From the NCBI GenBank assembly GCA_046328505.1, contig JAXLWL010000003.1:466181-530180 (forward strand): 64,000 bases of DNA. The letters run 5' to 3'. Within the stretch, counting starts at the first letter, position 1; every line of letters begins with the position of its first letter. Under the pieces are notes generated by a model that ran no database searches, was not told the DNA's origin, and was given only the letters and a program-made list of their open reading frames with translations. A program made the position numbers and the translations under genes. Of this stretch, positions 5,516 to 53,131 are shown one piece after another. The stretch is from Anaerolineae bacterium (GTDB lineage: Bacteria > Chloroflexota > Anaerolineae > Epilineales > JAHCIE01).

Positions 5516-5852
5516 GTCATTGCGAGACCCCCACGCCGGGTGACGGCATGCGCCGGCACAAGAACACAGTTAAGCCGTCATTGCGAGCGGAGCGAAGCAA
5601 TCCCCCGTCCTTGTCAAAGGCGGTTTGCACCGCTACGGCGTTGCTGTCATCCACCGAGAGATTGCTTCGTCAGTGGGGAGCTTCGCCCCCCACACCCCCG
5701 AGATGCGCTCCTCGCAATGACAGTAGTGTGTGTTCTGAGCAGGAGGACGATAGGACGACGAAGCAATCTCGCTTTGGGTAAATGGCCCGCTCTCGCCGTG
5801 CTAGAGTATCTGCCGCAAGGGCGGGGGATTGCTTCGCTACGCGCGCAATGAC
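5516..5852. repeat. composite array of three family-1 palindromic repeat units
   Basis: repeated gtcattgcgag / cgaagcaatc / gattgcttcg / ctcgcaatgac arms; units shared with locus 52820-53131. Confidence 0.85.
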
Positions 5853-5891
5853 AGGTCGCCTGTGCCTTATGCGGTACACGCGACACTCACG

Positions 5892-7394
5892 CTACCCGTT
5901 GCCCCAGCTCCGCACCGTCTCCACGGCGCGCTGCCAGCGCGCGTAGCCCGCGTCTCGCTCGTCCGCCGAGAGCCGCGGCTCAAAGACCGTGACCGCGCTC
6001 GGCAGCGGCGGCAGGGCACCGTGCGGCCAAACCCCGGCGCCCACGCCGGCGAGGAGGGCCGCGGCCCGGGCCGTCGTCTCCGTGAACGCCGGGCGCACGG
6101 TGGGAATGCCGAGCATGTCCGCCTGAATCTGACAGGCCAGGTCATTGGCCGACACGCCGCCGCCCAGGTAGAGCTGGCCAACGTGAATATCGGCCTGCGC
6201 CGCGATCGTCTCCAGAATGGCGCGCACCTGGTAGCCGAGCGCCTCCAGGAAAGCGCGCAGGATATGCCCGCGGTGGCTGCCCAGGGTCAAGCCCAGGATC
6301 GTGCCGCGGGCGTTGACGTCATTGTACGGGACGTTGAGGCCGGTGAACGCCGGCACGAAGACGACACCGCCGGCATCCGGCACGGAGCCGGCCAGCGGGC
6401 CGACCTCCTCATCGCGGTCAAACAGCCGCGCGCTTTCACGCATCCAGCGAATAGCCGCGCCGGTGACCGTCGCGTCCGCCTCCATGCAGTACGTTATCTC
6501 GCCATCGATTTCCCAGGCGTAATAGACGTTGATGCGCTCCTGCTGTGGCGCGTGGCTCCCGGTACAGACGTCCACGAACGTGGCCGTGCCGTGGGTGCAC
6601 TCGGCGTCGCCGGCCTGACGGCAGTCGTAGCCGTAGAGCGCGGCTTGCTGGTCGCCGATCATGGCCAGCACCGGGACATCGGCCTCCTCACCGTTTGGGC
6701 CTGTCAAGCGCAACACGCCATGGTCGCGGACAGTGGGCACAGCATCCGGCAGAATCGAGCGCGGCACACCGAGCCGCGCCAGCCACTCTTCCCAATAGCA
6801 GTGGGCGCGGAAGTCGTACATCCCCATCTGCTGCACGAGGGATAGGTCGGCGGCGTGGTCGCGCGCCTCGCCGAGGGCCACCAGCAGCCACTCGGCCGAC
6901 GGACCGACGCGCAAGGCGCCGGTGTGAGCCGCGTCGGCGAACGCTCGGTCGTGACGCATCCGCCAGGCCAGATGCATCGCCGAGCTCCACGGGCCTGGGA
7001 AGTAGCCGAGACGCTCGCGCCAGTTCACGGCCTCGGGCCAGCCGGAAAGCTCCGCCACGAGATCGACGGTGCGCAGGTCTTGCCACGTAATCGCGTTGCC
7101 GACTGGGCGACGTGTGTGAGCGTCCCAGGCGAAGTCCGTGTTGCGCTGAGAGGCCAGACCAACGGCGGCCACCTCGCTGGGTGTAATGCCCGCCTGGCGC
7201 AGAGCCTCAGACATGGCGTCGGAAACCGTGGCCGCGACGGCATACGGGTCCTGCTCCACCCGGCCCGCCTCGGGGTAGAGACGCGCCAGCGGGCGGTAGC
7301 CATAGCCGCGCACCTGGCCCTCGCGGTCCAGGATGAGTGCGCGGCTGCCGCTGGTTCCCTGGTCAATTCCAATAACGAAGGATGGAGTAGGCAT
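5892..7394 (-). CDS. FGGY-family carbohydrate kinase (glycerol kinase/xylulokinase-like)
   Basis: N-terminus VIGIDQGTSGSRALILD is the FGGY fingerprint; 500 aa. Confidence 0.85.
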   Translation of the reverse strand: MPTPSFVIGIDQGTSGSRALILDREGQVRGYGYRPLARLYPEAGRVEQDPYAVAATVSDAMSEALRQAGITPSEVAAVGLASQRNTDFAWDAHTRRPVGNAITWQDLRTVDLVAELSGWPEAVNWRERLGYFPGPWSSAMHLAWRMRHDRAFADAAHTGALRVGPSAEWLLVALGEARDHAADLSLVQQMGMYDFRAHCYWEEWLARLGVPRSILPDAVPTVRDHGVLRLTGPNGEEADVPVLAMIGDQQAALYGYDCRQAGDAECTHGTATFVDVCTGSHAPQQERINVYYAWEIDGEITYCMEADATVTGAAIRWMRESARLFDRDEEVGPLAGSVPDAGGVVFVPAFTGLNVPYNDVNARGTILGLTLGSHRGHILRAFLEALGYQVRAILETIAAQADIHVGQLYLGGGVSANDLACQIQADMLGIPTVRPAFTETTARAAALLAGVGAGVWPHGALPPLPSAVTVFEPRLSADERDAGYARWQRAVETVRSWGNG

Positions 7395-7408
7395 AGTTGT
7401 CGCCAGGT

Positions 7409-7464
7409 GTAGTGGCGACTTTGGTCGCTTCCGAAAGCCAGAGAGCGACTAAAGTCGCCACTAC
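7409..7464. repeat. family-2 small palindromic element (GTAGTGGCGACT ... AGTCGCCACTAC)
   Basis: 12-bp perfect terminal inverted repeats enclosing internal sub-hairpins; sits between the kinase start and the HAD gene stop. Confidence 0.75.
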
Positions 7465-7483
7465 ATAATGTCCTGCTGGAGTT

Positions 7484-8299
7484 TCATGGCAGCAAGTCGC
7501 CCAGGTTTCGGACGACGTAGGTAGGACGGACGGACGAGGTGGCCAGAGCCGAGGCCGGCGTCGCGCCGGTCAGCGTCAGGGCGGCGGCCATGCCGGCATC
7601 CAACCCCATCAGCACGTCGGTTTCGAGACGGTCGCCCGTCATGATACACCGGTCGGGCGGCATCTTCAATCGGCCCAGGATCGCCTCCGCCATGTGACGC
7701 GACGGCTTGCCAACGATAGCCTCGACCTTAGTGTTGGTGCACGCCTCGATCGCGGCGATGATCGCCGCGGCGTCCGGCTCCCCGCCGCCTGGCACCGGAC
7801 AATAACGGTCGCCGTTGGTGGCGAAGAATCGCGCGCCGGCGCGGATGGCATCAAAGGCTATCTGGAGCTTGCGGTAGACGAATGTCCTGTCGAAACTGGC
7901 GACAACGGCATCAATGCGTGTTGGATCGTCAGTCAACTCGAAGCCGCCGGCCGCCAGGTCGTGCTCCAGCGGCGCCTCGCCGACGGCGAACACGCGCGCG
8001 CCGGGCATCGTCCGCTGCAGGAAGTCTACCATAACCATCGATGAGTTGACAATGTCGTCTAGCGGCGTGGGCAGGCCGAGCCGCGCCAGGCGCTCGGCGT
8101 ACTCTTGCTGGGTATGGGTCGGGTTGTTGGAGAGAAAGACGGTGCGGCGGCCCATCTCCCGCAGCGTCGTGATGGTCTTGCCGGCCGTTGGGAGCAAGGC
8201 GTTGCCGAGGTAAACCGTGCCGTCGAGGTCGAAGATGTAGGCGTCGTAGAGAACCGAGGGACGGCTTATGGCTGTGTATAGGTCAGTCATGTATGTCAC
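7484..8299 (-). CDS. HAD-superfamily subfamily IIA hydrolase (NagD-like sugar phosphatase)
   Basis: YIFDLDGTVYLG motif I, LSNNPTHT motif, 271 aa. Confidence 0.85.
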   Translation of the reverse strand: MTYMTDLYTAISRPSVLYDAYIFDLDGTVYLGNALLPTAGKTITTLREMGRRTVFLSNNPTHTQQEYAERLARLGLPTPLDDIVNSSMVMVDFLQRTMPGARVFAVGEAPLEHDLAAGGFELTDDPTRIDAVVASFDRTFVYRKLQIAFDAIRAGARFFATNGDRYCPVPGGGEPDAAAIIAAIEACTNTKVEAIVGKPSRHMAEAILGRLKMPPDRCIMTGDRLETDVLMGLDAGMAAALTLTGATPASALATSSVRPTYVVRNLGDLLP

Positions 8300-8507
8300 T
8301 CATGTAGCCAGCGTATCGCCCGCCGACGCCCCCGACTCGAGTCGGGGGCTGAGAGGGCCAAGCCTGCTGAAGCGCAGCAGGGGCGTTACGCCCCCGCACC
8401 CCAAAGAGGGCAGCCCACTTCAGTGGGCTTTGCAGTGTCAGCCTGGCACTTGAGTGCCAGGCGTCGCCGAGAGAGGGTCAAAACTCCCAAGTCAGACTCG
8501 ATTAAGT

Positions 8508-9376: not shown

Positions 9377-10309
9377 CTAGTACTCTAGCTCGTCTTGCAT
9401 GACGCGCCACAGGTAGATGAAGATGAAAATCGAGGTCAGCAGGAACAGCACCACCGCAATCGTCGCGCCGTAGCCCATCTTGTAGTTATTGAACGCCTCG
9501 ATGTACATGAACGTCGCCATCACCGAGGAAGCGTTGGCAGGACCGCCGCGGGTCATGATATAGACCAGGTCGAAGGAGCGCAGCGAGTCAATGACGCTGA
9601 TGACGACGACGATGATGGTGACCGGGGCAAGTAGCGGCCAGATGACGTTGCGGAACTGCTGCCAGCCGTTCGCGCCGTCCACCTTGGCGGCGTCAATGAG
9701 CGTCGGGTCGACGCCTTGCAGGCCGGCCAGGTAGAGCACCATGATGTAACCCACCTGGCGCCAGATGGCGGCGGCGATGATGCACCACGTGGCCAACGCG
9801 GGATTGGCCAGCCAGCCCTGCTGGAGCGCACCCAGGCCCACTGTGCGCAGGAAGGTATTAAGCATGCCCTGAACCGGTAGATAGATCCAGCCGAAGATCA
9901 GGCCGATGATGACCGGCGCGAGGATGTAGGGCGAGTAGATGGCCGACTTGATGCCGCGCGCGCCCGGCAGGTTGCGATTGAGGGCCATCGCTAGCGCCAG
10001 CCCCAGCGCCACCGGCACAGTGATGAAGGAGACCAGCCACTTGATGTTGTTGCCGATGGAGGTATAGAACAGCGGGTCCTTGAAGAGCCGCTGATAGTTG
10101 GCGAAGCCAATGTATTGCGGCGCCGAGATGCCATCCCAGTTGGTCAGGCTGAGATAGAATGAGTAGAACATCGGCCCAATGACCCAGATGAGGAACATGA
10201 TTACGGGCACGGCCAGGAACAAGTAGGGCGTGAACACCGGCGCGCGGTGTGAGCGCCCTCGTTTCTCGGCGACTGGACGGGTCGCCTCAACGCTGCCAGT
10301 GGCGGCCAT
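9377..10309 (-). CDS. carbohydrate ABC transporter permease (CUT1, MalF/UgpA-like)
   Basis: typical permease hydrophobic profile; ATG 10309 preceded by AAAGGAG. Confidence 0.9.
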   Translation of the reverse strand: MAATGSVEATRPVAEKRGRSHRAPVFTPYLFLAVPVIMFLIWVIGPMFYSFYLSLTNWDGISAPQYIGFANYQRLFKDPLFYTSIGNNIKWLVSFITVPVALGLALAMALNRNLPGARGIKSAIYSPYILAPVIIGLIFGWIYLPVQGMLNTFLRTVGLGALQQGWLANPALATWCIIAAAIWRQVGYIMVLYLAGLQGVDPTLIDAAKVDGANGWQQFRNVIWPLLAPVTIIVVVISVIDSLRSFDLVYIMTRGGPANASSVMATFMYIEAFNNYKMGYGATIAVVLFLLTSIFIFIYLWRVMQDELEY

Positions 10310-10333: not shown

Positions 10334-10484
10334 GTAGTGGCGACTTATGGACCTTGCGGAACCGTTGCCACCCATCGCTCGCGGCGGAGAGCCAACTCCG
10401 CCGCCGTTGGTGGTGCTGGAGATGGCTCTCCAGCATCAGCACGATTACGGCAGCAATTAGCCAAGAACCATAAGTCGCCACTAC
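10334..10484. repeat. family-2 palindromic element, long version
   Basis: gtagtggcgactt ... aagtcgccactac termini 151 bp apart with internal hairpins (ggcggag..ctccgcc; ctggaga..ctctccag). Confidence 0.7.
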
Positions 10485-13277: not shown

Positions 13278-15263
13278 CTAGCGCTGCGCCTTGCCTGGCT
13301 CCTCGTCGAAGCTGTACGCCTTCCCTACAAGCGGCAGATACGCGAAGTGTGTGTATGCAACCCCCGGCGTTCCGCTCGTCGCCGTTGGAGTCGGTGTTCG
13401 CGTCGCGGTAGCCGCCGGTAGCCCCGTCGTTGCCGTCGGTGTGGGCGTTCGCGTCGCGGTAGCCGCCGGTAGCCCCGTCGTTGCCGTTGGAGTCGGCGTC
13501 CGCGTCGCGGTGACCACGGGCGTCAGGCTCGCGGTCGGCGTCGGTGTCCCTGTTTGGGATGGCAGGCCGAGCGTTTCGGTTGGTGTCGGCGTCTCCGTCG
13601 CCTCGACTGTCTCGGTCTCAGTCGGTGTCGGTGTAGCGGTCGCCGACTCGCCGGGCGCGCTGAGAACCACGCCGTAGCCCGTCAGGCTGACGGAGCCATC
13701 GCTCGACTGACCCTGGTTGGTAATCACGAGGACGATGCTCTGGGTCCCGGCCGGTGGCGTGAAGCCCGCGAGCGACGCGTTCTCCCCCGGTCCCGCGATC
13801 TTCGAGAGAGGAAACACCTGCAAATCATCGCCGGTGTCGGCGACGACGCTCGCCCGCAGCGCGCCGTTCGACGTCGCATTCACCATGTCGACGTTGTAGG
13901 CGCCGCTCGTTGGCAGTCCAATGTAATTGATGGAGTACGTGTCGCTGATGACCCCGATATAGGTCGGGCTGCCGGCCGTGAGCTCGCCATCGTTGACGAT
14001 CGGCGATCCGCTCATGTAGGCAGCGATCCCGTCGCCGTCGCTGAAGCAGTAGGGGTCGGCGACCGGGCACTTCTTGGTGAAGCGGATGGCAATGGCGAAG
14101 TTGTGGAACAAATCGTTGAGGTTGCTGCCCTTCGCCTTCAGCGCGTTGTCGTACGCCGGGATGGCGGCCTGCCCCGCCGCCACGAACGCCAGGAAGTCCT
14201 TGTACACCACCTCCCCGCCGCCCGGCGTGTTCAGCCCACCGTTCTGCTCAGACGCGTAGCGGAACATCGGCCAGTTCGAGTACCACCCCGCCTTCGGATA
14301 GGTCGCGAGGGATTGCTGGAACAGCGGCCAGAGGTAACCGTAGTTGTCGTGGCTGTCCGGGTAAACCTCGTCCTCGGCGTATGTCGCCGTCGACTCCGTC
14401 CACATCCCCTCGACGGTCTGCGATGGGTAGCCGACGCCAAACTGGATCGAGTGCACGAACTCGTGGGCCGTCGTGGCATTCAGCGCCTGCAGGGCCTTGG
14501 CCACGTCGCCATTGGTGAACTGTACAAGGTCATTGTTGATGACCATGCACGATGCCCACGCATCGGTCTCCGTCGCCGGCGTGTTCGGGTTATTACCGAT
14601 GAAGCCGGTGTACGGCCCGCCGACAATCGTCACGTAGCCGTATAGCTTGCTGTCGCTGGAGGAAGCATCGTTGACCTGAACCGGGTACTTGCCATAGGCG
14701 TTCTCCGCGGTGAACGGCGGCTTCGGCCAGTCGTACGACGTCACCTCGACGCCGAACGCCGTCTCGAGGCCGGTCTTGTACTGATCGATGGTCAGGCCGG
14801 CGATGTCGCCATAGTTGATGACGAAGTCCGTCGTCTCCGTGGTATTGGGGCCGTCCGGCTTGTTGCACAACGTCCCCTGCGGGCGCGTGAGCCGGGTTAG
14901 CTCCGCCACGGTGGCCGGCGAGAGCGCGGTCACCTTGCCCGTCCCCTGGTTCTGCAGCGTCTTGTTGATCTCCGCTACGGCCGCCGTGCCTTCCCAGCCG
15001 GCCGTGCCGTGATACTGCGCGGGCAGCTTCGAGATGTCGTACACGGCGTAGGCCAGGTACAGGATGCGCTGCTCGGCGGTGATCTCACCGCGGCTGTACG
15101 CTTGATTGATCAACTGCTCGGTCGACAGGGGCCTAGAACTGGCGGAGGATGCTGCGGCGCCGGCTGACTGCGCCAGGAGAGGCAGGGCGGCCAGTACAGT
15201 GAGCAGGGCGAGCATCGCCAGGACAAACGCGAAACGACGCGGCCGAAATGGAACGGTTCGCAT
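13278..15263 (-). CDS. secreted HExxH zinc metallopeptidase with C-terminal Thr/Pro-rich linker and YLPLVGK tail
   Basis: signal peptide; TTAHEFVHSIQFG (HExxH); TP linker with repeated TTGLPAATATRTPTPTA; C-terminal FAYLPLVGKAYSFDEE; ATG 15263 with AAGGAG. Confidence 0.8.
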   Translation of the reverse strand: MRTVPFRPRRFAFVLAMLALLTVLAALPLLAQSAGAAASSASSRPLSTEQLINQAYSRGEITAEQRILYLAYAVYDISKLPAQYHGTAGWEGTAAVAEINKTLQNQGTGKVTALSPATVAELTRLTRPQGTLCNKPDGPNTTETTDFVINYGDIAGLTIDQYKTGLETAFGVEVTSYDWPKPPFTAENAYGKYPVQVNDASSSDSKLYGYVTIVGGPYTGFIGNNPNTPATETDAWASCMVINNDLVQFTNGDVAKALQALNATTAHEFVHSIQFGVGYPSQTVEGMWTESTATYAEDEVYPDSHDNYGYLWPLFQQSLATYPKAGWYSNWPMFRYASEQNGGLNTPGGGEVVYKDFLAFVAAGQAAIPAYDNALKAKGSNLNDLFHNFAIAIRFTKKCPVADPYCFSDGDGIAAYMSGSPIVNDGELTAGSPTYIGVISDTYSINYIGLPTSGAYNVDMVNATSNGALRASVVADTGDDLQVFPLSKIAGPGENASLAGFTPPAGTQSIVLVITNQGQSSDGSVSLTGYGVVLSAPGESATATPTPTETETVEATETPTPTETLGLPSQTGTPTPTASLTPVVTATRTPTPTATTGLPAATATRTPTPTATTGLPAATATRTPTPTATSGTPGVAYTHFAYLPLVGKAYSFDEEPGKAQR

Positions 15264-15335
15264 GGCACGTCTCCTTAACAGAACCGCCATCGTCGGTCTC
15301 ATCATGAAACGCAACGGTGGCGTTTAGGTCATCCA

Positions 15336-15364
15336 GTAAGGGCAGGTTTGAAACCTGCCCTTAC
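15336..15364. terminator. strong hairpin between the two protease paralogs (possible terminator/attenuator)
   Basis: perfect 11-bp stem gtaagggcagg/cctgcccttac with loop tttgaaa; no clear U-tract. Confidence 0.35.
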
Positions 15365-15402
15365 ATCACCACGTCCCTTTAGCTGTAGATGTAGCGGCCC
15401 AA

Positions 15403-17196
15403 TTACCGCGTCAGTGATGGCGGAACCTGATCGAAGCTGAATTCCTTCCCGACCAGGGGCAGATACGTAAAGTACGAGTATCCGCCGGGCGGCGGCGTAG
15501 GCGTGTCGCTCGGAGTCGGTGTCGCCGCTGGCGTCGGAGTCTCTGCCGGCGGCGTGGGTGTGCCGCCTTCACCTGCCGTTCCAGCGGTCACGCGATAGGC
15601 CGTCATGCTCACCGAGCCATCACTCGACTGGCCCTGGTTGGTCACGACCAGAACGACGCGCTGGGTGTTGGCCGGCACGGTAAAGCTCGCCAGAGTCGCC
15701 GTCTGGCCGGGGCCGGCCGTGCCGGGCACCGCCACGACGGTCAGACTGTCGCCGGTGTCGGCGACGACGCTTGCCCGCAGCTCGCCGTTGGTCGCGGTGT
15801 TCGCCACCTCGACGCTGTAGGCGCCGCTCGACGGCAAGCCGACGTAGTTGATGGAGTACGTGTCGCTGATGCTCCCGGTGTAGTTCGCGCCGACCGAGGC
15901 CACCTCGCCGTCATTCTGGATGGGGGTATTCTGCATCTTCAGCGCGATCCCGTCGCCGTCGCTGAAGCAGTACGGATTGGCGACGGGGCACTTCTTGGTG
16001 AAGCGGATGGCAATGGCGAAGTTGTGGAACAAATCGTTGAGGTTGCTGCCCTTCGCCTTCAGCGCGTTGTCGTATGCCGGGATGGCGGCCTGCCCTGCTG
16101 CCACGAACGCCAGGAAGTCCTTGTACACCACCTCCCCGCCGCCCGGCGTGTTCAGCCCGCCGTTCTGCTCAGACGCATAGCGGAACATCGGCCAGTTCGA
16201 GTACCACCCCGCCCGCGGGTAGGTTGCGAGGGATTGCTGGAACAGCGGCCACAGGTAGCCGTAGTTGTCGTGGCTGTCCGGGTAAACCTCGTCCTCGGCG
16301 TATGTCGCCGTCGACTCGCTCCACATGCCGCTGACTGTCGGGGATGGGGAGCCGACGCCAAACTGGATCGAGTGCACGAACTCATGGGCCGTGGTGGCAT
16401 TCAGCGCCTGCAGGGCCTTGGCCGGATCTCCCCCTGCGAACTGCCCCATGTCATTGTTGATGACCATGCACGTGGCGTAGGCATCGGTCTCCGTCGCCGG
16501 CGTGTTGGGGTTGTTACCGATGAAGCCGGTGTACGGCCCGCCGTCCGTCGTCACGTAGCCGTACAGGTTGGCATCCGACGTAGACGCATTGGTAACCTGC
16601 ACCGGATACTTGCTGTACGTGTTGGCCGCGGTGAACGGCGGCTTCGGCCAGCCGAACGACGTGACCTCGACATCGAAAGCCTTGTCGAGGCCGGTCTTGT
16701 ACTGATCGATGGTCAGGCCACCGGCGATGTCCCCATAATTGATGACAAAGCTCGCGGTCTCCGTAATGTTGGGCCCATCCGGCTTGTTGCACAACGTCCC
16801 CTGTGGGCGCGTGAGCCGGGTTAGCTCCGCCACGGCGGCCGCCGAAAGGGGTGTCACTTTGCCCGTCCCCTGGTTCTGCAGCGTCTTGTTGATCTCCGCT
16901 ACGGCCGCCGTGCCTTCCCAGCCGGCCGTGCCGTGATACTGCGCGGGCAGCTTCGAGATGTCGTACACGGCGTAGGCCAGGTACAGGATGCGCTGCTCGG
17001 CGGTGATCTCACCGCGGCTGTACGCCTGATTGATCAACTGCTCGGTCGACAGGGGCTTAGAACTGGCGGAGGATGCTGCGGCACTCGCTGCGCCGGTCGA
17101 TTGGGCCAGCACAGGCAGAACCGCCAACACGGCAAGCAGGGCGAACAGGAATGTCGCCACAACGAGGCGTCGTGGCAGAGGGCGGGATATTCGCAC
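15403..17196 (-). CDS. secreted HExxH zinc metallopeptidase, tandem paralog
   Basis: same architecture; long stretches nucleotide-identical to 13278-15263; GTG 17196 with AAGGAG; C-terminal FTYLPLVGKEFSFDQ. Confidence 0.8.
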   Translation of the reverse strand: MRISRPLPRRLVVATFLFALLAVLAVLPVLAQSTGAASAAASSASSKPLSTEQLINQAYSRGEITAEQRILYLAYAVYDISKLPAQYHGTAGWEGTAAVAEINKTLQNQGTGKVTPLSAAAVAELTRLTRPQGTLCNKPDGPNITETASFVINYGDIAGGLTIDQYKTGLDKAFDVEVTSFGWPKPPFTAANTYSKYPVQVTNASTSDANLYGYVTTDGGPYTGFIGNNPNTPATETDAYATCMVINNDMGQFAGGDPAKALQALNATTAHEFVHSIQFGVGSPSPTVSGMWSESTATYAEDEVYPDSHDNYGYLWPLFQQSLATYPRAGWYSNWPMFRYASEQNGGLNTPGGGEVVYKDFLAFVAAGQAAIPAYDNALKAKGSNLNDLFHNFAIAIRFTKKCPVANPYCFSDGDGIALKMQNTPIQNDGEVASVGANYTGSISDTYSINYVGLPSSGAYSVEVANTATNGELRASVVADTGDSLTVVAVPGTAGPGQTATLASFTVPANTQRVVLVVTNQGQSSDGSVSMTAYRVTAGTAGEGGTPTPPAETPTPAATPTPSDTPTPPPGGYSYFTYLPLVGKEFSFDQVPPSLTR

Positions 17197-18693: not shown

Positions 18694-18885
18694 CTAGCGA
18701 TCGGTGCTGACAACGGGAAGCTGCCAGCCGTCAGTGTTGCGGGACCAGACAATGTGGAAGCGGGGCTGGGGTCCCCGCTGGCGCTCGGCAACAGAAGACA
18801 TCGCCGAATCCGATGGCTTGAGCACGATCATTGCACCCATCACGATTGCCAGGACAATGATCGCCAGCCAGATGTTGGTGTTCAT
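18694..18885 (-). CDS. possible small membrane protein (63 aa)
   Basis: MNTNIWLAIIVLAIVMGAMIVLKP... single TM, good GC3, weak RBS; lies in an otherwise non-coding 550-bp region. Confidence 0.25.
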   Translation of the reverse strand: MNTNIWLAIIVLAIVMGAMIVLKPSDSAMSSVAERQRGPQPRFHIVWSRNTDGWQLPVVSTDR

Positions 18886-19041
18886 AAGCGCGTTTTCCGG
18901 TGCGAGAAGATATCTACTACGCGGTTTGATAGCATGATGCGCGCCACCAAAGCTCCGCAGCATTATAGCGACACGGGAAGTATGAGGCAACTTTCAGCAA
19001 ACGTTTTCCCATTTCGGAAGGCCCCGTAGCGCCAACAAATG

Positions 19042-19148
19042 AGAACCCTCTCCCCGTAGGAGAGGGCAGGGTAAGGGTCTTGAAACCTTGCCGGGTTCCA
19101 GAACCCTCACCCCAACCCTTTCCCAGAGGGAGAGGGGGTTAAGACCTT
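19042..19148. repeat. tandem hairpin-containing direct repeats (aaccctctcccc..ggagaggg) immediately downstream of the giant gene
   Basis: units aaccctctccccgtaggagagggcagggtaagggtcttgaaacc and aaccctttcccagagggagagggggttaagaccttg; candidate terminator/REP. Confidence 0.4.
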
Positions 19149-19152
19149 GCTG

Positions 19153-22100
19153 TTACTGGCCGACCGTGATGTAGGGCAGGTAGATGCAGCCGGTGCGGAC
19201 ATCCACCGTGCCTGACGCATCCACCGGTAGCGCCTCGCTCTTCGTGTTCGAGAGTGTCAGCGATGCCTGATCACCGTTCGCCAGATCGATGCTCATCGCG
19301 CCGCACCCGATCACGCGGAAGGTGATCTGGGCCAGCGACCCGCTGCCATCGACCGGGCCGTCCAGGCGAGCGCCCGCCAGGCGGACGATGTGCTTGCCGT
19401 CAGCCGTCACCGCCGTGTTCTCCATCGGCACGATCAGCGAGCCCTCGGGCAGCAGGCTGCCGGCCTTCACCTGGACGCCGGGCTTATCGGCGTCACTGTC
19501 GACAACCTCGACGACGCGCGGATCGTACGCCAGGTTCAGCGCGCCGCCGTAGAAGCCGGTCAGGTTGTCGAGATTGACGGTCACAGTCACCAGGTCGCCT
19601 AGTCCGTAGGTCGCCTTCGGGTTGTCCACCGCCAGCCGGGCCTTGGCCGGAGCGACGTTCGCCTGCGCCGCCTTGCTTGCCGCCGCGCCCGCGCCCAGCG
19701 CCACGGTGCTGTGCAAGCCATCCGTCGGCCCAACGCGGTCGAAGTTGTTGCTGACAAGCACCAGGTCGAAGATGTTGATCTTGTTGTCGCCGTTGATGTC
19801 GGCACGCGGCTCGAAGTTCGGCATTCCCAGCGCGCTATCGTATGCCGACGCGACCAGGGTCAGGTCGAACAGGTTGATGAAGTTGTCGTTGTTCGCGTCG
19901 CCACCAATCATCGTCATGTTGCCGAGCGGCGTGTCGATGCTGGTCACATCGAACTCGCGCCGGATTGGCAGGTAGCCGTCCATGGTCACGGTCAGGACGT
20001 GGTGACCGTACGTCGTCCCGGCGATGTCGAAGTCGCCGTTGACGTCAGTCACCGCCGAGCCTTCCGCGCCGTCATCGATGAGTACCAGGGCTCCCGAGTA
20101 GTTGGTGCGGCCCTCGAGCGCAACCGTTCCGGTCACGTCGTCGCGGTTGGGCGGCGGGAGCGTCTTGCAAGAGATGACCTGCGAGTAGTCGGAGTACTGC
20201 CCATCGGCGCTCTGGTAGAAGCGCGATCGGTAGAAGTAGAGCGTGTTACCCGACAGGCCCATGTTGCGGTAGCTTCCCTGGCCGGACGGCAGCACCGCGA
20301 CCTCGCTCCAGTTCACGTCGTTGAGCGAGCGCTCGATGTGGATGCTCGTCGCGGCAGCGCCGGGCGATGTCCAGATCAGGTCAATCGCGGTGGACGAGTA
20401 GACGCGGCAGCTCCAGTCGGGCGGCGGCGGAGGCGGCTTCTGCGGCGTCGTACACGACGCGGGTCCGCTGAAGGCCGTCTGGACGCCGTTCTTGATGCCG
20501 GCTACCTGGTACTGATAGCTCGTATTCGGCTGGGCGCTCTTGTCGTAGTAGATCGACGTGCCAGCCGGCTGCTGCACGGTCGGGCCAGACACGAAGGAGG
20601 CCACGCGCTGAATGACGAGCGCATCGTACGCAGCGTTGTTCTCCCACGTAATGTTGATCTGGTTGCTGTTGACGGTGATACACTGCACGTTGGACGGCCC
20701 GAGAAGGCCCGTCGGCGTCGGCGTCGGCGTCGCCGTATTGGTCGACGTGTTTGTCGGCGTATTCGTCGGCGTGCTCGTGCGGGTCGACGTTGGCGTGTTG
20801 GTCGGTGTCGCCGTGTTCGTCGACGTCGGCGTGTTCGTCGCCCTCGTCCCTGTTGTCGTTGGGGTCGGCGTGTATGTGTTCTGGCCGGTGGGCGTGACCG
20901 TGCTCGTCGACGTCGCCGTACTAGTCGCCGTCGCCGTGCTCGTCGGCGTCGCCGTGCTCGTCGGTGTCGCCGTGTTCGTGGCCGTGCTGGTCGCCGTCGC
21001 CGTCGGTGTATCGGTCGGGCGCGGTCCGGGCGGCTCCTCTGGGTTCACCCAGATATCGCCGCCGTCGTTCGGGTTGTACGTAAACTTGACCCGGGCCGTG
21101 GTCGGGTTGCCGGTGATGGCCGGCCCCTCGGCGTTGAAGAAGTCGATGTGGCCCGTCGAGCCGCCCACGGGGAAGTCGGCCGGGCCGACACCGCCCGTGT
21201 TAGGCTGCGGGATGCCCGGATACGGCGAGCCTGGGTTAGCGGCCCGCCACGCGGCGGCAAGATCGGCCTGGGACGACTGGGAGCCGTCCAGCTCCGGGTT
21301 GATATCGGTGCAGGCAAACAGCGACAGACGGCTCTGGGTCGAGACCAGGCTGCTGGTGAGCAGGTAGTACTGGTCGTTCGGGAGCTGGATGTCGGTGTAG
21401 CTCGCCGGGATTGTCAGGAACTGCTCGGTGCTCCAGTTGTCCCGCACAGGCGACCCGACCGCACCGGCCGCGTTGATCCACAGCATTTCGCGCAGCTCAC
21501 CCGTGAAGCGCGGCTCCACGCTCTCCGCCCGGACTCGGACGACAAGGGGTGATGCCGCGCGCGGTGCGCCGACGCAGTCGCTGCTGCTGTGGACGCCCAC
21601 TGAGGCGAACTGATCGGGAGTGATGCGGTCCACGTCGAGGGCGATGGTGTGCGCCATGTTGAACGGCGGGACCTGGGAGATGACGTTCGTGTCCGGGTTG
21701 TTGAGCACCGCGCCGCGGAAATAGGCCTGGAGGGCGATGCTATCCTCGCTGTTGACGAACGGTGCGACCTTGGGAACAGGCGTGCGCAGGGTGATGTACT
21801 TGAACTCATACGGCTCGGTGCCCGGCCCGCTGTCGCTCGGCGCCGTATCGATGGCGACAACGTTGTACTCGTGGCCGTCGACGAAGAAGCGCTTGAGGTA
21901 CCACGGGTCGCCCTTGGTCAGGTTGTGGCCGCCCTGGCCATTGTCGATCGCCGCGTAGGTTGCGCCCAACGCGCGGCCAACGGTGACGGAGACCGACTCG
22001 TCAAACTGGTTGACTGCGCCGACGTAGACGAACCAGGCGCCGTCCGTGCTGCCCAGGTTGTTTCCACCGTGGGGGAGGCGGCGCACGAAGTTGCGGTTAG

Positions 22101-26008: not shown

Positions 26009-28234
26009 TTACGCCAACATCGCAACCAGCGTGCGGTCAGCGCTCGCCAGCCGATCCGCCAGCACCCGCGCTAACATCCTGTGCAAGGCCGCTGCCAACT
26101 CCGGCTCCTCGACCTCCATCCGGGCCAGTTCTTCCTGACTCAAGCAATACACAGTGACCAGCTCATCGGCGACCACCGATGCGGAGCGTGGTCGCCCCAA
26201 GTAGAAGCCTAGCTCTCCCACCCATACGCCAGGCTCCATCGTCCATAGCCGCATTTGCTCGCCGGTCGGCATCTCTAGCAGGACCGTGGCCAGCCCTGCC
26301 TCGATCAGGTATAGCTCGTCCGCCACCTCTCCCTGCCGCATGATACTCTCGCCCGCCGCAAACGAGCGTCGTTCCATGTATGGCAAGAAGCGCGCCGGTT
26401 CAATCGTCGGCGGCAGGTACGCCTCCAACCGCTCGGCAAAAGACATCATCCCCGTCGCGTAAGCGCCATGCGCTGCCAATATCTGTTCTTCGCACCACTC
26501 GACCCCCCGGTCCAGGTCCGCAAACAGCTTCAGATTGGGGGTTGAATCGGTCAGGCCGTACGCCTTCAAATCAACGCGCATGTAATCGCTCACGTGCGTG
26601 AGGACGAGCGTTATGTCGCGTCGGGCAACGGTCTGCAATAGGCGCGCGAAGCTCAGCGCGGCAGACGAGTCCATCCCGACAACGCGTTGAAAGTCCAGCA
26701 CGACAAACCGCAGCCGCGGTTGGGTTGTATCCTCAGTGCGCTGGCGGATCTGTTCCAGCAGGCTGTTCGCTGTCCCGAAGAACAGGTAGTTCTGCAGCCT
26801 GAGGATGTAGGTGTCCTCGCCGTGCTCGCGCAGCGCCTGCTCCTGATCAGGTGAGCGCTGACGATTGCTGACAAACGTCTGTCCCGTCAGCGTGTTTCGG
26901 ACAACGCCGATGCGGCTGTAGCGCACCAGGAACACCCCGACCGCGATCGCCAGCCCGACAGCGACGCCCGGTAGAGGCCCCGCCGCCATGATAACAAGAA
27001 AGATGACAGCTATCAACACCCAGTCAACGCGCGGCATGTTGAACCATGTCTTGTAAAGCCATCCGATGAGGAGATCGGCGCCCACGAAGATGATGATCCC
27101 GCCAAGAACGAAGCGCGGCAGGTAGCCGAGCGGCGCAGTTCCTACGACCAAGGCAAGCCCCGCGACCGCTGCTGTTGTGAGCGGGACGAGAATACTGTGC
27201 ACCTTCATTCGTGGCGCAAGCAAGCTCAGGCCCAGCGCTGAAAAACCGGGCATTCCGCCCAGTATTCCACTCAGCAAGTTGGCGGCGCCGTTGCTGGTGA
27301 GGTCTCGGTTGAGGTCGAAATCCTGGCGGGTCGCCAACTCCAGGGCGCTGTCGTACAGCAACAGCGTCATCGTGCTCAGCAACACCAGGCTAAGCAAATT
27401 GCCGGTCTGGTGTAGTAACACAGACCAGTTGATATCAACCCACTCGGCAGGCGCCAGGGGGGGCCAACGATAGCCTTGGGCGAACGGGCCGAGGAGCCAG
27501 CCCGCGGCGCTGGCCTGGGCAGTGGAGTGTCCCGTGAGAAACAGGACCACGTAGAAGAGAGCGCCGCTTGCGAGCAGAATTACCGGCAGGATGAGGAAAT
27601 GTCTGACGCGCGAACTCAGGAAGAGCAACAGCGCCGCGAGCGCGACGCCCGGCAGCCAACGGCTCAACGTCTCCGGCGCGAACAGCCGGCCCAGGTTGGC
27701 GAGCATAGTCGGCCCGTCAACCATGACGCCTAGCCCACCCTTGGCGAGCAAACCGCCGGTTCCTGCCAGGAACCCGCCCATCACCGGGTATGGAATCAGG
27801 CGGATGAACCGCCCGAGGCGAAAGGTACCAATCGCCAGGTACGCCAGGCCGAGCAGCACGGACGCCAGGACCATCAACGCCAGGACAGTCGGATAGACCT
27901 GGCGCTCCGAGCCGGGTGACGAGAGATCATCGGCGATCGCTGCGGCCGAGACGGCCAGAATGACCGCGGTTACGTCCTGGGGGCTGGCAAGAACGAAGGG
28001 CACAGAGCCAGTCAGGGCCACCACGATGCTCAAGACAATGATGCCGGTCAGCATGCTTCCCCAACCGCCCGGCAGGTACCGCGCCAATTGGTTGTCGAAA
28101 ATCAGCGTCGCCAGCGAGATCTCGATCATCAGAAGCACTAGACCGACGATAAGGCCCGCCGTCACCCCCGGTATCAGGCGATGAAGCGCAAACTCGTGCC
28201 TAAGCATCTCAAGAACGGCGGGACGTTTCGACAT
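26009..28234 (-). CDS. SulP/SLC26 anion transporter fused to STAS and a C-terminal cyclic-nucleotide-binding domain
   Basis: SulP TM core, STAS segment FVVLDFQRVVGMDSSA, C-terminal CAP_ED-like ...ESIMRQGEVADELYLIEAGLATV...; ATG 28234. Confidence 0.85.
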   Translation of the reverse strand: MSKRPAVLEMLRHEFALHRLIPGVTAGLIVGLVLLMIEISLATLIFDNQLARYLPGGWGSMLTGIIVLSIVVALTGSVPFVLASPQDVTAVILAVSAAAIADDLSSPGSERQVYPTVLALMVLASVLLGLAYLAIGTFRLGRFIRLIPYPVMGGFLAGTGGLLAKGGLGVMVDGPTMLANLGRLFAPETLSRWLPGVALAALLLFLSSRVRHFLILPVILLASGALFYVVLFLTGHSTAQASAAGWLLGPFAQGYRWPPLAPAEWVDINWSVLLHQTGNLLSLVLLSTMTLLLYDSALELATRQDFDLNRDLTSNGAANLLSGILGGMPGFSALGLSLLAPRMKVHSILVPLTTAAVAGLALVVGTAPLGYLPRFVLGGIIIFVGADLLIGWLYKTWFNMPRVDWVLIAVIFLVIMAAGPLPGVAVGLAIAVGVFLVRYSRIGVVRNTLTGQTFVSNRQRSPDQEQALREHGEDTYILRLQNYLFFGTANSLLEQIRQRTEDTTQPRLRFVVLDFQRVVGMDSSAALSFARLLQTVARRDITLVLTHVSDYMRVDLKAYGLTDSTPNLKLFADLDRGVEWCEEQILAAHGAYATGMMSFAERLEAYLPPTIEPARFLPYMERRSFAAGESIMRQGEVADELYLIEAGLATVLLEMPTGEQMRLWTMEPGVWVGELGFYLGRPRSASVVADELVTVYCLSQEELARMEVEEPELAAALHRMLARVLADRLASADRTLVAMLA

Positions 28235-28306
28235 CACGACTCCTAACGAAGGATTGTGAAGCGACGCAACAACTCGGTCAACGCCGAACAATCTGCCGCA
28301 ACCGAC

Positions 28307-30531
28307 CTACGCCAACAAGCCAACCATCATCCGATCTGTGTTCGCCAGCCGCTCCGCCAGCACCCGCGCCAGCATCTCGTGGAAAGCCATCGCCAGATCC
28401 GCGTCCTCCGCCTGCATTCGCTCCAGCCCGGCGCGGCTCAGGCTGTACACCGTCACCGGCTCGTCCGCGACCACGGATGCCGATCGTAGCCTCCCAAGGT
28501 AGAACCCCATCTCCCCCACCCACGTACCCGGCTCCATCGTCCAGAGCCGGATCTCATTGCCATCTGGCAGTCGTAGCAGGACTGTCGCCTGCCCCGCGCC
28601 GATGAGGTAAAGCTTGTCGGCTGCCTCTCCCTGGCGCATGATGGTCTCACTCGCCGCGACCTCGCGCCGCTCCATGTAGGCCAGAAGCCGCGGCGGCGCA
28701 ATTGTCGCCGGCAAGTACTGCGCCAGCTCGTCCGCAAATGTGAATTCGCGGGCGTCGGCCTCGCCCAGTGCAGCAAGCGTTTGATTCTCGCACCACTCCA
28801 CGCCACGGTCCAGGTCCGGGAATATCCGCACATCCTCACCTTCGAGAATCTGCCCGCCAAGCTTAAGCTCCCGGAGCAGCGCATCTTCGATGTGTGTCAG
28901 CACCAAGAAGATGCCCCGCTCGCTGGTGATTTGCTGCAACCGGACAAAGCCCAGGACCGCCGATGAATCCATGCCCACGACGCGCTGGAAGTCCAGCACC
29001 ACGAACTTGACCGGCGGCTGCCCTGTGTCATCTACCCGATGGCGAATCTGTGTCACCAGGCCGTCCGCGGTGCCGAAGAAGAGATAGTTTTGCAGTCGGA
29101 GAATGTAGAGGCTGGCGCCGTGCTCGCGCAGCAGTCGCTCGTGACGGAGGAGGCGCTGGCGGTTGCTGACGAAGGACTGCCCATCCAGTGTGTTCTTGAC
29201 AACGCCCACTCGGCTGTAGCGTACGATGAACAGCACCATCGCCACGATAAGGCCGACCCCAATCCCGACCAGGAGTCCGCTCGTAATAATGACGGCGAGG
29301 ATAAGCATCAGCAGAACCCAGTCGAGGCGCGGCAGGCTGAACCAGGTCGAGTAGACCCATTCAATCAGCAAGCTGAGTCCGAGAAAGAAGGCCAGACCTG
29401 CCAGAGTGAAGCGGGGCAGGTAGCTCAAACTGTTCGCGCCGACGAGAAGAGTCGCGCCGGCCATGAACGCGACAACCAGCGGGGCCACTCGCCGCCCGAC
29501 CCGCATCCGCGGCCCAATAAGCGAGATGCTGAGCGATGTGTAGCCTGGCGCCCCGCCCAGAAGGCCACTGAGAAGGTTGGCCCAGCCATGCGCACGCAAG
29601 TCCTGATCCAGGCTCGTATCGCGATGCAGCGCCAGCTCAAGCCCTGTCTCGTTTAGGAGCAAGGATATTGTGCCGACGAGGAGCAAACTCAGCATCAGTC
29701 CCATTTCCTGGCCCAACACCGCCCAATTGATTTCGGGAATTTGTGATGGGGCGAGGGGCGGCCAGCGATACCCTTGAGAGAAAGGTCCCAGGAGCCAATC
29801 GTGCGCGCTGGCCTGGGCGAGCGAAGTCCCAGTCAGCCACAGAACTGCATAGAAGCCAGCAATACTCACCACCAGTGTAGCCGGCACGACCAGGAAATGT
29901 TTGTATCTGGCGGTCAACACAGCGAGAAGAACGCCGAGCGCCACCCGGGCAACCAGTGGGACAGAGTATCGGCGACGAACAGCTCAGGCAAATGTTCCGG
30001 CGTAGTCGGCACGTTGACCATGATGCCAAGCGCTTCCATCGCCACCAGCCAGCCCGTGCCTGCCAAAAACCCGCCGGCGACAGGGTACGGGATGAAGCGA
30101 ATGAGACGCCCCAGCCGAAACGTGCCCAGCCCAAGGTAGACGAGGCCCATCAGTATCGAGGACAGGATAATGTAGGCGAGAACTGTGGGGTAGACCTGGC
30201 TGAGCCGGCCTTGTGAGATGAGAGCGCTGGCTATGGATGTGGTCGCTAGAGCCAGGATGACGGAGGGGTTTTCCTGGGGCTTGGCAATTGCGAAAGGCAA
30301 CGAGCCCACAAGGGCGACGACAACGGCGAGGACGACCGTAGCCGTGAGCATGCTCGACAGCCCATTCGGCAGGTACGGCGCGAGATCGCCGGAGAATATG
30401 AGCGCCGTCAGCGAAATCACGATTGTCACGGTCATCACACTGGCGAGGAGCCCCGCGATCAGACCGGGCAGGAGGCGGTCAGGCGCTAGCTCGCGCCGAG
30501 TGCGACCGAGGATACCCGAGGATGTGGACAT
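28307..30531 (-). pseudogene. second SulP-STAS-cNMP-binding transporter paralog, split by a single -1 frameshift (or sequencing error)
   Basis: ORFs 29914-30531 and 28307-29944 overlap; by comparison with the intact paralog the junction ...HWLPG|VALGVLLAV... is broken by one missing base in the run cccggg (29943-29948). Confidence 0.75.
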
Positions 30532-42158: not shown

Positions 42159-42213
42159 GTAGTAGCGACTTGAGTCGCTTCTCAGACAGAAGAACGACTG
42201 AAGTCGTCAGTAC
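42159..42213. repeat. family-2 palindromic element, degenerate copy
   Basis: gtagtagcgact ... agtcgtcagtac with internal hairpins agcgact-tga-gtcgct and acgact-gaa-gtcgt. Confidence 0.6.
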
Positions 42214-45139: not shown

Positions 45140-45258
45140 GTCATTGCGAGCGTCAGCGAAGCAATCTCTCGCCCTTGCGAAGGGCGGCCTAAGCAGCAGC
45201 ATATCTTTTGCCCACCGAGAGATTGCTTCGTCCTCCTGTCGTCGTCCTCGCAATGACC
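45140..45258. repeat. family-1 palindromic repeat unit
   Basis: gtcattgcgagcgtcagcgaagcaatc ... gattgcttcgtc ... ctcgcaatgac. Confidence 0.8.
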
Positions 45259-49967: not shown

Positions 49968-50044
49968 GTCTCAATTGTCATGCTGAGCAAAGCAGAGCAT
50001 CCCGGCTCGGACGGGGACTCTTCTCTTCGCTCAGAGCGACATGG
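49968..50044. repeat. diverged/truncated family-1-like palindromic unit
   Basis: gtcatgctgagcaaagcagagcatcc ... tcttcgctcagagcgacatg resembles gtcattgcgagcgaagcgaagcaatc ... cttcgctccgctcgcaatgac. Confidence 0.5.
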
Positions 50045-50053
50045 AGTTTTCAG

Positions 50054-52021: not shown

Positions 52022-52400
52022 CCAGGGAGACGTGCGGCGCATCTCGCTGGCGCTGCCCGGCACGAGCGAGGCCGAGGACCACTTCGGTTTCTCGGTGCTC
52101 AACAAAGGCAAACAGAAAGGCTTTGTCTGGGCGTGGAACGAGCGCGTCGAGCCGAAGAAGCCGAAGGTACCAAACCCTTTAGTCGTCGCTGTTCGCGTGG
52201 CCGATCAGAATGAGAAGGAATTGCTGCTCTTGTCCGGCGACGAGAAGTTCTTCACCGAACCGCACTACAACGGCTTTCCGGCGGTCCTGGTCCGGCTGCC
52301 GTTGATCGGGGTGGAGGAGTTGCGAGAGCTAATCGAGGACGCGTGGCGCTGCCAGGCGCCAAAATCGCTGGTCGCGGCGTGGGAACAAGGCGAGGGGTGA
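52014..52400 (+). CDS. MmcQ/YjbR-family protein (putative DNA-binding)
   Basis: GTG start overlapping the peptidase stop; ISLALPGTSEAEDHFGFSV resembles the YjbR N-terminal motif. Confidence 0.55.
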   Translation: MADQGDVRRISLALPGTSEAEDHFGFSVLNKGKQKGFVWAWNERVEPKKPKVPNPLVVAVRVADQNEKELLLLSGDEKFFTEPHYNGFPAVLVRLPLIGVEELRELIEDAWRCQAPKSLVAAWEQGEG

Positions 52401-52435
52401 CACTTAGCACACGACGAACCCGGATAAGGTGAGCT

Positions 52436-52669
52436 ATGGAATATGAGGTGCGTATACTCCGCGGTCCGAATTGGTGGGAGAACGAAGGTTACGAGATCTC
52501 AGAAGCCGAATGGCAGAGAGTTGTCGAAGCCAACGCGGCAATGCGTATGAGCAGGGCGGCTGAGGCAGCTTATCCAGAAGGCGTACTTCAATACGAGAGT
52601 CCTAACCTGGCTGAATGGCAGGACACCCGAGCGGACACGTTGTCTGGCTCGATTTTCGGGGCGGGATGA
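52436..52669 (+). CDS. small hypothetical ORF in a low-GC (~52%) patch
   Basis: 77-aa ORF with AAGGTGA RBS; atypical composition; followed by a 35-aa ORF (52666-52773) with ATGA overlap. Confidence 0.3.
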   Translation: MEYEVRILRGPNWWENEGYEISEAEWQRVVEANAAMRMSRAAEAAYPEGVLQYESPNLAEWQDTRADTLSGSIFGAG

Positions 52670-52819
52670 TCGTTGTCAATAATCCGGATAAGCCGATCAT
52701 TGTAAAAATGCAGGATATTGCGCGTATATTGGCCGCTCGTGTGCAAGGCGATGAGGGCGAGTTCTACGATTGACGTCCAGAACAAACCTTTCCCGCTGGC
52801 TAGAGGACGCTACGAAACT

Positions 52820-53131
52820 GTCATTGCGAGCGGAGCGAAGCAATCTCACGCTGGGGAAAAGGTACGCTGTACCCGTGCTAGAGCGGCCTACACAAGGGCG
52901 CCAGATTGCTTCGTCGGGCTATCGCCCTCCTGCTCAGAACACACACTACTGTCATTGCGAGGAGCGCATCAGCGCGACGAAGCAATCTCTCGGTGGATGA
53001 CAGCAACGCCGTAGCGGTGCAAACCGCCTTTGACAAGGGCGGGGGATTGCTTCGCTCCGCTCGCAATGACGGCTTAACTGTGTTCTTGTGTCGGCGCATG
53101 CCGTCACCCGGCGTGGGGGTCTCGCAATGAC
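52820..53131. repeat. composite array of three family-1 palindromic repeat units (mosaic relative of 5516-5852)
   Basis: right-most unit is the reverse complement of the left-most unit at 5516; another unit is shared in the same orientation. Confidence 0.85.

Follow-up and report, generated by a model that had tools for sequence, protein, structure and literature searches.

What are the palindromic repeats that recur in a 64,000-nt stretch of an Anaerolineae (Chloroflexota) metagenome-assembled genome (MAG), contig JAXLWL010000003.1, and what carries them from place to place? The repeats in this stretch, referred to as the window, are here called family 1 and are built from nested inverted arms, the outer pair GTCATTGCGAG/CTCGCAATGAC and the inner pair CGAAGCAATC/GATTGCTTCG. 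A nuclease homologous to the product of the Neisseria ssnA locus, which is flanked by the hairpins known as NTS, is itself encoded between hairpins of the family-1 type, and family 1 is therefore assigned to the Ssn/SRM system. Family 1 thus probably consists of SRM hairpins, the DNA partner of a clade of GIY-YIG proteins of about 95 residues within the Ssn family, and corresponds to the CGTC-tagged repetitive extragenic palindromes (REPs) described from other bacteria.

The basic element of family 1 is the head, a hairpin of 26-27 nt with the sequence GTCATTGCGAGCGNAGCGAAGCAATC. It is laid out as GTC, ATTGC, GA, GCG(N or NN)AGC, GA(A), GCAAT and C, which, folded as single-stranded DNA, can give an unpaired GTC tag, a 5-bp stem (ATTGC/GCAAT) topped by a tandem G·A/G·A(A) step and a GCGNAGC or GCGNNAGC mini-hairpin, and a 3' C. 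When viral contigs were scanned with the stem positions left free (pattern GTCANNNNGAGCGNAGCGANNNNTC), all four free positions were Watson-Crick paired in 191 of the 207 distinct matches. These matches include at least 11 complementary stem types, among them TTCT/AGAA (80 matches), TCCT/AGGA (61), TTCC/GGAA, TCCC/GGGA, TGCT/AGCA, CCCT/AGGG, TACT/AGTA, TTTC/GAAA, CTCT/AGAG and TGTT/AACA, and the tag, the G·A steps and the apical part are constant across them. The pairs of the stem stay intact through all of these types, and the hairpin is therefore kept by compensatory change.

The apical part is exactly GCGNAGC or GCGNNAGC, with N any of the four bases, in 358 of 990 distinct heads collected with a structural finder, and in five of the seven heads in the window. 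Motifs of the GCGNAGC type are known as 'mini-hairpin DNA' and are extraordinarily stable as DNA (PMC13037366), so that the apex points to a structure formed by single-stranded DNA (ssDNA) and not by RNA. Whole units, in which heads are combined with further sequence, fold as DNA at -29 to -35 kcal/mol, with z-scores of -3.4 to -6.3.

The link to a nuclease comes from the open reading frames (ORFs) that heads bracket. Screening 19 such frames yielded a 95-aa GIY-YIG protein in the repeat cluster of a relative (L302:2039-2326), which matches PF01541 and nothing else in Pfam. No REP-associated tyrosine transposase (RAYT) was recognised by eye among these 19 frames, a limited sample in which the Pfam scan covered the GIY-YIG candidates only. 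A homolog with 54% identity (L211) is bracketed by heads of a different stem, the TTCT type (GTCATTCTGAG..AGAATC), and a Planktothrix homolog with 65% identity has TTCT and TCCT heads either side. On the Planktothrix agardhii plasmid NZ_LR882964.1 (L471), an Ssn-like gene at 18847-19131 is located between GTCATTCTGAG.. and GTCATCCTGAA.. heads, and these in turn between an MmeI-type restriction-modification gene and the DISARM gene drmA, that is, inside a defence island.

The association holds at loci selected without regard to repeats. Across 86 loci chosen purely by GIY-YIG profile homology (6 viral contigs and the best 80 of 594 confirmed metagenome stretches), a head is present within 350 nt of the gene at 63 (73%), upstream at 49, downstream at 53 and on both sides at 39 (45%). 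Head density is 2.67 per kb near the gene versus 0.115 per kb further off, a 23-fold local enrichment, and shuffled loci contained 0.15 heads in total versus 159 observed. Of the 146 heads in this vicinity, 137 have the TTGC stem seen in the window. At 38 of 49 loci the nearest head upstream is on the plus strand, and at 34 of 53 the nearest one downstream is on the minus strand, with a usual layout in which the plus head ends about 33 nt before the start codon and the minus head is found about 18 nt past the stop. These loci came from the profile-based search; a search of the viral contigs with a single GIY-YIG protein returned nothing.

Homologs of the 95-aa protein number in the thousands, at 65-78% identity and in many phyla. 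Members of the clade (P0121-P0240, L390-L469) come from Anaerolineae, Elusimicrobiota, WOR-3, Ignavibacteriae, Syntrophomonas, Nostoc/Anabaena and Deltaproteobacteria, and most copies sit on contigs of 0.5-3 kb, a pattern that suggests horizontal spread together with assembly breaks induced by repeats. A search for a solved Ssn structure found none; the profile has just two weak matches, the UPF0213 proteins 1zg2 and 1ywl. In N. gonorrhoeae, tblastn of the 95-aa protein finds a single locus (44% identity, E = 2e-18), and this locus is flanked by canonical NTS. Two PLSDB records, NZ_CP119142.1 and NZ_CP119140.1, are 2.17-Mb N. gonorrhoeae 'plasmids' that are evidently chromosomes; they carry the ssnA locus with NTS, and the ssnA frame in them looks interrupted near its 5' end. 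For the genome under study, the candidate is MFN8476029.1, a GIY-YIG protein with 78% identity whose accession number is about 2,900 above those of the window proteins MFN8473123.1 and MFN8473151.1; from this close numbering we infer that it belongs to the same MAG, where it is probably encoded on another contig.

In Neisseria, the NTS CGTCATTCCCGCGMAVGCGGGAATCYRG, which contains dRS3, and related SRM hairpins flank ssnA, whose product is a 94-aa single-domain GIY-YIG protein (cd10448) (Chenal 2025, Nat Commun 16:2388, PMC11893778). The Neisseria and Wolbachia enzymes bind the hairpin only as ssDNA and cut a few nucleotides upstream of it; Ssn is inactive on double-stranded DNA or RNA, and Neisseria SsnA does not bind RNA. 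A motif is found near 71% of ssnA homologs and on both sides of 42%, and the resemblance of the NTS-ssnA-NTS layout to an insertion sequence was pointed out by the same authors, although the role shown is modulation of transformation, and the activity is cleavage, not transposition (PMC11893778). Family 1 resembles this system in having an oriented hairpin (about 28 nt) whose 5' tag is (C)GTC, whose stem starts with AT and whose palindrome is followed directly by a C, in its hundreds of genomic copies, and in the inverted pair that brackets a single-domain gene (73% and 45% here versus the published 71% and 42%); the 95-aa protein also falls within the tblastn cut-off of E < 1e-10 that Chenal used for homologs. 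The stems differ, with 5 bp, a tandem G·A step and a GCGNAGC/GCGNNAGC mini-hairpin here and a perfect 8-bp stem there. In addition, the host here belongs to the Anaerolineae and the heads are built into composite units of 115-216 nt with a conserved core; a precise pair of filled and empty sites is recorded, and the clade is known from sequence alone.

The same head also resembles the CGTC-tagged REPs. These form head-to-head dimers and have an unpaired tag (CGTC, or TGTC/CCTC), an AT-starting stem and a 3-nt tail, CCA; they are known from several phyla and are described as elements that 'apparently lack a dedicated transposase' (Di Nocera 2013, BMC Genomics 14:522, PMC3733652). In family 1 the base before GTC is C or T at five of six window heads, stems start with AT, many metagenomic copies have the CCA tail, inverted doublets are the rule and several phyla are represented; neither group is associated with RAYT. 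CGTC-tagged REPs have 8-9 Watson-Crick pairs in the stem and 4-5 nt in the loop, whereas the family-1 head reaches nine stacked positions only with G·A counted (five Watson-Crick, two G·A and two Watson-Crick pairs) and has a loop of 3-4 nt. Di Nocera et al. knew of no enzyme linked to the CGTC-tagged REPs, and listed Chloroflexi for GTAG repeats only.

In the window, the outer-arm 13-mer GTCATTGCGAGCG occurs 13 times with up to two mismatches versus 3.6 expected, and none of 100 shuffles gave 13. The inner arm CGAAGCAATC has 12 exact matches, which form six inverted pairs (3053/3129, 5593/5669, 5759/5836, 45157/45230, 52836/52913 and 52978/53054). These make up two single units (3036-3150 and 45140-45257) and two arrays (5516-5852 and 52820-53131). 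An earlier note on this DNA, made from the letters alone, had reported both pairs of arms at these four places and had put the copies at gene boundaries; the arms were all verified in the sequence, and every family-1 copy is intergenic. The note had also counted a degenerate copy at 49968, which is indeed degenerate but represents a sister stem type, ATGCT/AGCAT (GTCATGCTGAGCAAAGCAGAGCATC), and thus a different stem subfamily. The features are listed below with their coordinates and strands, loci being lettered A to E.

2988..3035, plus strand: degenerate left module of the 50-nt type (locus A); by blastn, the block 5527-5742 matches 2988-3129 at 75%.
3036..3150, plus strand: single 115-nt unit with head, 57-nt core and tail (locus A); fold -31.3 kcal/mol, z = -3.5.
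5516..5526, plus strand: outer arm GTCATTGCGAG of the host unit of array B, with the copied block joined directly to it.
5527..5742, plus strand: 216-nt composite block; inverted copy at 52930-53120.
5743..5852, minus strand: rest of the array B host unit, canonical on the minus strand.
45140..45257, plus strand: single unit of 118 nt, which separates two genes read in the same direction (locus C); fold -32.9 kcal/mol, z = -6.3.
49968..50040, plus strand: degenerate sister-stem unit, GTC ATGCT GAGCAAAGCAG AGCAT C (locus E), just upstream of the S9 peptidase gene.
52820..52929, plus strand: resident ancestral unit of array D, made of a head, a core that is flipped relative to the arms, the inner arm and a tail linker; its ortholog, L473:12356-12465, is about 91% identical.
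52930..53120, minus strand: inserted block of 191 nt, the reverse complement of 5527-5742 minus 25 nt; not in the orthologous unit of L473.
53121..53131, plus strand: outer arm CTCGCAATGAC of the array D resident unit, split off by the insert (alignment with L473).

A 115-nt unit begins with the head and a short linker, followed by a core of 57-58 nt (consensus YCCCGCCCTTGCGACAGACGGTCT...ATCACCCGCCGGGR in the unit alignment), the inverted inner arm, a variable 3' linker and the inverted outer arm. The 3' linker is TCGTTC, TCGTCCTATCGTC, GCGGCAAAGCCCG or a longer GGGGCGG..CCGCCCC hairpin. Units are often extended by a 50-nt left module (ACCCCCACGCCGKGTGACGGCRTGCGCCGACACRAGAACAC..), which nearly always has another GTCATTGCGAG ahead of it, and by a right arm, GTGTTCTGAGCAG. 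Two inverted heads around the core are a REPIN- or NIME-like doublet (a doublet of REPs that forms a hairpin, or a Neisseria intergenic mosaic element), which the extra modules turn into a block of about 190-216 nt. The unit of locus A is placed in a leader, with a conserved promoter-like site ahead of it and the ATG at 3201 after it.

NIMEs and the enterobacterial bacterial interspersed mosaic elements (BIMEs) consist of tagged palindromes in alternating orientation around variable segments of 50-150 nt. Family 1 likewise forms intergenic mosaics common to several loci, the comparison with NIMEs being one of description and not of sequence, but it represents another sequence family in another host, and BIMEs are made of GTAG-type REPs with RAYT. 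REPIN-RAYT systems and the palindrome-associated elements (PATEs) of IS200/IS605 also have non-autonomous hairpin doublets, an enzyme gene flanked by those hairpins, no target duplication, and recognition of the hairpin as ssDNA by the enzyme, which for family 1 is presumed by analogy. They differ in having an HUH/Y1 fold and a GTAG tag, where family 1 has GIY-YIG and GTC, and in that their transposition has been demonstrated.

Arrays B and D are mutual reverse complements from 5516 to about 5770, with three substitutions and an indel of 24-25 nt in the alignment. In the repeat search this appears as two matches, one of 157 nt and 99% complementarity (5515-5671 versus 52976-53132) and one of 94% (5702-5772 versus 52900-52970); past about 5770 the arrays match in their arms only. 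What they truly have in common is one block of 191/216 nt, copied into two different host units. In array B the block is made up of the left module at 5527-5576, a full unit at 5577-5721 whose 3' linker has an extra GC-rich hairpin, and the right arm GTGTTCTGAGCAG at 5730-5742, and what remains of the host unit contributes the head GTCATTGCGCGCGTAG.., the core start CCCCGCCCTTGCGG.. and the tail linker TCGTCCTATCGTCCTC. The indel (5672-5696 versus 52971-52975) comes from the GC-rich hairpin GGGGAGCTTCGCCCCCC, which the middle unit has in its 3' linker in one copy of the block and lacks in the other. GGGGCGG..CCGCCCC linker hairpins resembling it are also found in the relatives L321 and L363.

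This anatomy changes how the similarity of the two arrays is read. The earlier note had the unit at 5516 reappear reverse-complemented in the other array with an indel of about 25 bp; the inverted copy and the indel stand, but 5516-5576 is an outer arm plus the 50-nt left module, which precedes units at many related loci, and is not itself a unit. A second unit, said to be shared in the same orientation, is indeed in direct orientation (loops 5769-5826 versus 52846-52903), but with cores only about 74% identical it is no recently inverted copy: the unit at 52820 is an older and different resident, and the 'same orientation' unit is therefore not a fresh inversion.

Proteins of the window match those of an Anaerolineae MAG, on a 1.33-Mb contig, at 100% identity. 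Synteny with three relatives is complete across the window, yet all five repeat loci differ, and orthologous sites in related MAGs do not keep the same copies, as the following comparison shows.

Locus A: in the window, about 290 nt including the family-1 unit; in L230, 7 nt from the promoter-like site to the ATG; in L229, half a unit with another stem.
Locus B: in the window, array B; in L229, a GTAG-type REP doublet; in L230, a 6-nt spacer.
Locus C: in the window, a single unit; in L472, a short repeat-free spacer; in L473, a GTAG-type REP doublet.
Locus E: in the window, the degenerate TGCT-stem unit; in L472, two family-1 units (9715-9969); in L473, none.
Locus D: in the window, the resident unit with a 191-nt insert; in L473, one uninterrupted unit.

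Locus D provides the clearest pair of filled and empty sites. The unit of L473 is about 91% identical to window positions 52820-52929 plus 53121-53131, and the extra 191 nt (52930-53120) are located exactly between the tail linker (..CCCTC) and CTCGCAATGAC. Read on the minus strand, the junctions of the insert are GTCATTGCGAG^ACCCCC...GTTCTGAGCAG^GAGGGCGATAG, and no target duplication is present in this filled/empty pair. The comparison of these sequences indicates that composite elements have moved recently. The core of the resident unit is flipped relative to its arms in the window and in L473 alike, and such flips are found in about 3 of 65 units in all. The view of the earlier note that these are MITE- or REP-like units (MITEs being miniature inverted-repeat transposable elements) which recombine or invert is thus upheld as regards a mobile, structured mosaic repeat family, with flips of the core only occasional. 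An inversion of the whole 47-kb segment between the arrays (5.8-52.8 kb), which the note had considered possible, is ruled out relative to the related genome STL-CHL21 by collinear blocks on its contig JAXLWK010000005.1, where the FGGY kinase (minus) and S9 peptidase (plus) genes are about 40 kb apart in the same relative orientation.

A further variable spot is located at 58055-58675. In the window it holds two small ORFs (58050-58400 and 58397-58669); three family-1 heads in tandem are found there in L364 and a single head in L473, and in L472 a DDE_Tnp_1 insertion sequence is close by. In relatives, the very sites that hold family-1 units in the window are occupied by a second palindromic family, GTAG-tagged (GTAGTGGCGACT.. 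in the window, TGTAGTAACGACTTNAGTCGTT.. in relatives) and arranged as inverted doublets. This family is found at 7409-7464, 10334-10484 and 42159-42213 in the window, at L229:11540-11600 and at L473:5214-5272, and is likely a RAYT-type REP.

The number of copies bears on whether family 1 is a repeat family at all, the earlier note having allowed that only the few seen in the window might exist. The long-core subfamily is present in at least 86 stretches, nearly all from three related Anaerolineae MAGs, one of which encodes P0121, a member of the 95-aa GIY-YIG clade; arrays reach up to 13 matches among the long-core stretches listed. The head alone is much more widespread, with at least 120 stretches in viral contigs; outside phage-like contigs it occurs there as inverted doublets, and many metagenomic copies end in ..GCAATCCAG. 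In the phage-like IMG/VR contigs L003, L015 and L036, several genes have a single head 10-20 nt upstream of the ribosome-binding site, in every case on the coding strand (L015, for example, has six heads, all minus), and these could be nuclease targets or regulatory hairpins. Two viral contigs carry head-to-tail tandem arrays of heads, L046:2695-2818 and L020:28-101, with periods of 33 nt and 43 nt.

How might a nuclease of this kind spread the units? The cognate enzyme, probably MFN8476029.1, would recognise heads while the DNA is single-stranded, during replication, transformation or repair, and would nick beside the head. If the strands then switched template or were transferred at the short conserved arms, units or whole blocks could be copied to new sites, and copies would often land in existing heads and so build mosaic arrays; nicking followed by strand transfer into existing heads would explain why the mosaics are clustered. 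Effects on transcripts, such as termination, stability or altered leaders, are plausible as by-products.

Several observations count against the assignment of family 1 to the Ssn/SRM system. The published SRM pattern, HGTCWYN(0-2)YYVSBRHN(0-5)WNVSBRGN(0-2)RNCYNB, a search heuristic from 29 genomes (PMC11893778), finds six NTS in the N. gonorrhoeae locus L470 but has no match in the window and fails on family-1 and TTCT-type heads. With nearest-neighbour DNA folding, single heads reach only -2 to -4 kcal/mol with z near 0, no better than shuffles, a result that is set aside because the parameters cover neither sheared G·A pairs nor GNA mini-hairpins. The 64-kb window contains no GIY-YIG gene, MFN8476029.1 is placed in the source genome by accession numbering, and the enzymatic activity of the clade is taken by analogy from the Neisseria and Wolbachia enzymes. 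The copying step is likewise indirect, since homologous recombination or gene conversion could yield the same filled site.

The last point leads to the closest rival, according to which the repeats are relics moved by host recombination only (gene conversion, slippage or template switching), and the nuclease is domesticated, for instance to restrict incoming ssDNA. The insert at 52930-53120 is bounded by sequences of the donor context, the 11-nt outer arm and a similar linker, and has no target-site duplication; flipped cores are expected from recombination between inverted arms, and the Ssn paper demonstrates modulation of transformation, not transposition. For the remodelling of arrays, recombination without enzyme-driven transposition is thus a serious alternative. 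As an account of the whole family it is improbable, as units are also found at sites that are repeat-free in relatives (locus C in L472, locus A in L230), which calls for insertion and not for conversion. In addition, the nuclease gene, bracketed by inverted heads, is laid out like an insertion sequence, is found on many short contigs and is 65-78% identical across phyla, which together suggest that it moves itself. A more far-reaching reading would make the Ssn-type GIY-YIG nuclease a true transposase of a new mechanistic class, which excises or copies elements of 115-216 nt as ssDNA and inserts them beside GTCATTGCGAG^ without target duplication, arrays growing by self-targeted nested insertion and the gene with two heads acting as an autonomous interphylum element; we regard this stronger proposal as unlikely.

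The other explanations concern what kind of element family 1 is. That the units act mainly as RNA, whether as structured non-coding RNA, as a hairpin that terminates transcription or stabilises mRNA, or as a leader element, would fit their position in 3' regions and leaders, mostly sense to the adjacent gene, the phage-like contigs in which heads are found just upstream of ribosome-binding sites on the coding strand, and the strong folding of whole units. However, RNAalifold, per-sequence folds and pair counts on 37 units gave no common core fold; in the same units the arms pair but do not vary, and only three closing pairs of the core covary, weakly, and the reading as an RNA gene was dropped. 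Rfam had no match in the whole window at the gathering threshold and, with E up to 10, only a chance miRNA match (E = 4.3) in 5450-5900, and a promoter and terminator scan found no terminator-like site at the repeats. The GCGNAGC/GCGNNAGC loop is moreover a DNA-specific stable structure, and Neisseria SsnA does not bind RNA, so that a primary role as RNA is very unlikely and side effects on transcripts are likely but secondary. Mobilisation as REP/REPIN elements by RAYT, the HUH tyrosine transposase related to IS200/IS605, would account for the general architecture of a tagged imperfect palindrome in intergenic clusters and inverted doublets, and the inverted ends, the size of about 115-216 nt and the DDE_Tnp_1 insertion sequence of a relative (L472:16509-17289) recall classical MITEs derived from a DDE-transposase insertion sequence with terminal inverted repeats. 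Hardly any weight is given to either. The tag is GTC and not GTAG, the head-bracketed gene encodes GIY-YIG and not a Y1 transposase, Di Nocera et al. found no transposase beside CGTC-type REPs (PMC3733652), and the separate GTAG-tagged family in these genomes is the better RAYT candidate. A MITE would be expected to leave a target-site duplication, which the clean filled/empty pair (52930-53120 versus L473) lacks; its ends would not be expected to be hairpins with covarying stems across phyla, as transposase-binding terminal repeats are not, and the screen of head-bracketed ORFs revealed no insertion sequence with these ends.

The window also contains repeats of other kinds. Tandem gene-scale duplications are present at 13668-17020 and 26010-29246; one has a period of 1921-1924 nt with 93-96% identity and includes the DUF6055-like genes 13278-15314 and 15403-17196, and an older one has a period of 2298 nt with about 72% identity. 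Degenerate repeats with periods of 6, 12 and 18 nt (GTCGGCGTC..) are found at 20714-21023 and 62277-63522 in very large minus-strand ORFs, and are probably low-complexity coding repeats of surface proteins, unrelated to the palindromes.

An unannotated palindrome that is very widespread in metagenomes is now tied to an enzyme family already in print; the arm sequences themselves, looked up in the literature, had returned unrelated primers only. The element is a well-documented new example of a hairpin class already linked to Ssn nucleases and not a new kind of element, and it reveals that the published SRM pattern misses a large clade whose hairpin is based on the GCGNAGC mini-hairpin. Many spurious 'VIAS..EAI'-type ORFs, as well as assembly breaks, stem from this palindrome, and its units are worth masking in gene calling. 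They are also candidate substrates for new site-specific ssDNA nucleases, and the comparison of the filled with the empty site documents recent movement, which for Ssn/NTS systems was previously hypothesised but not documented.

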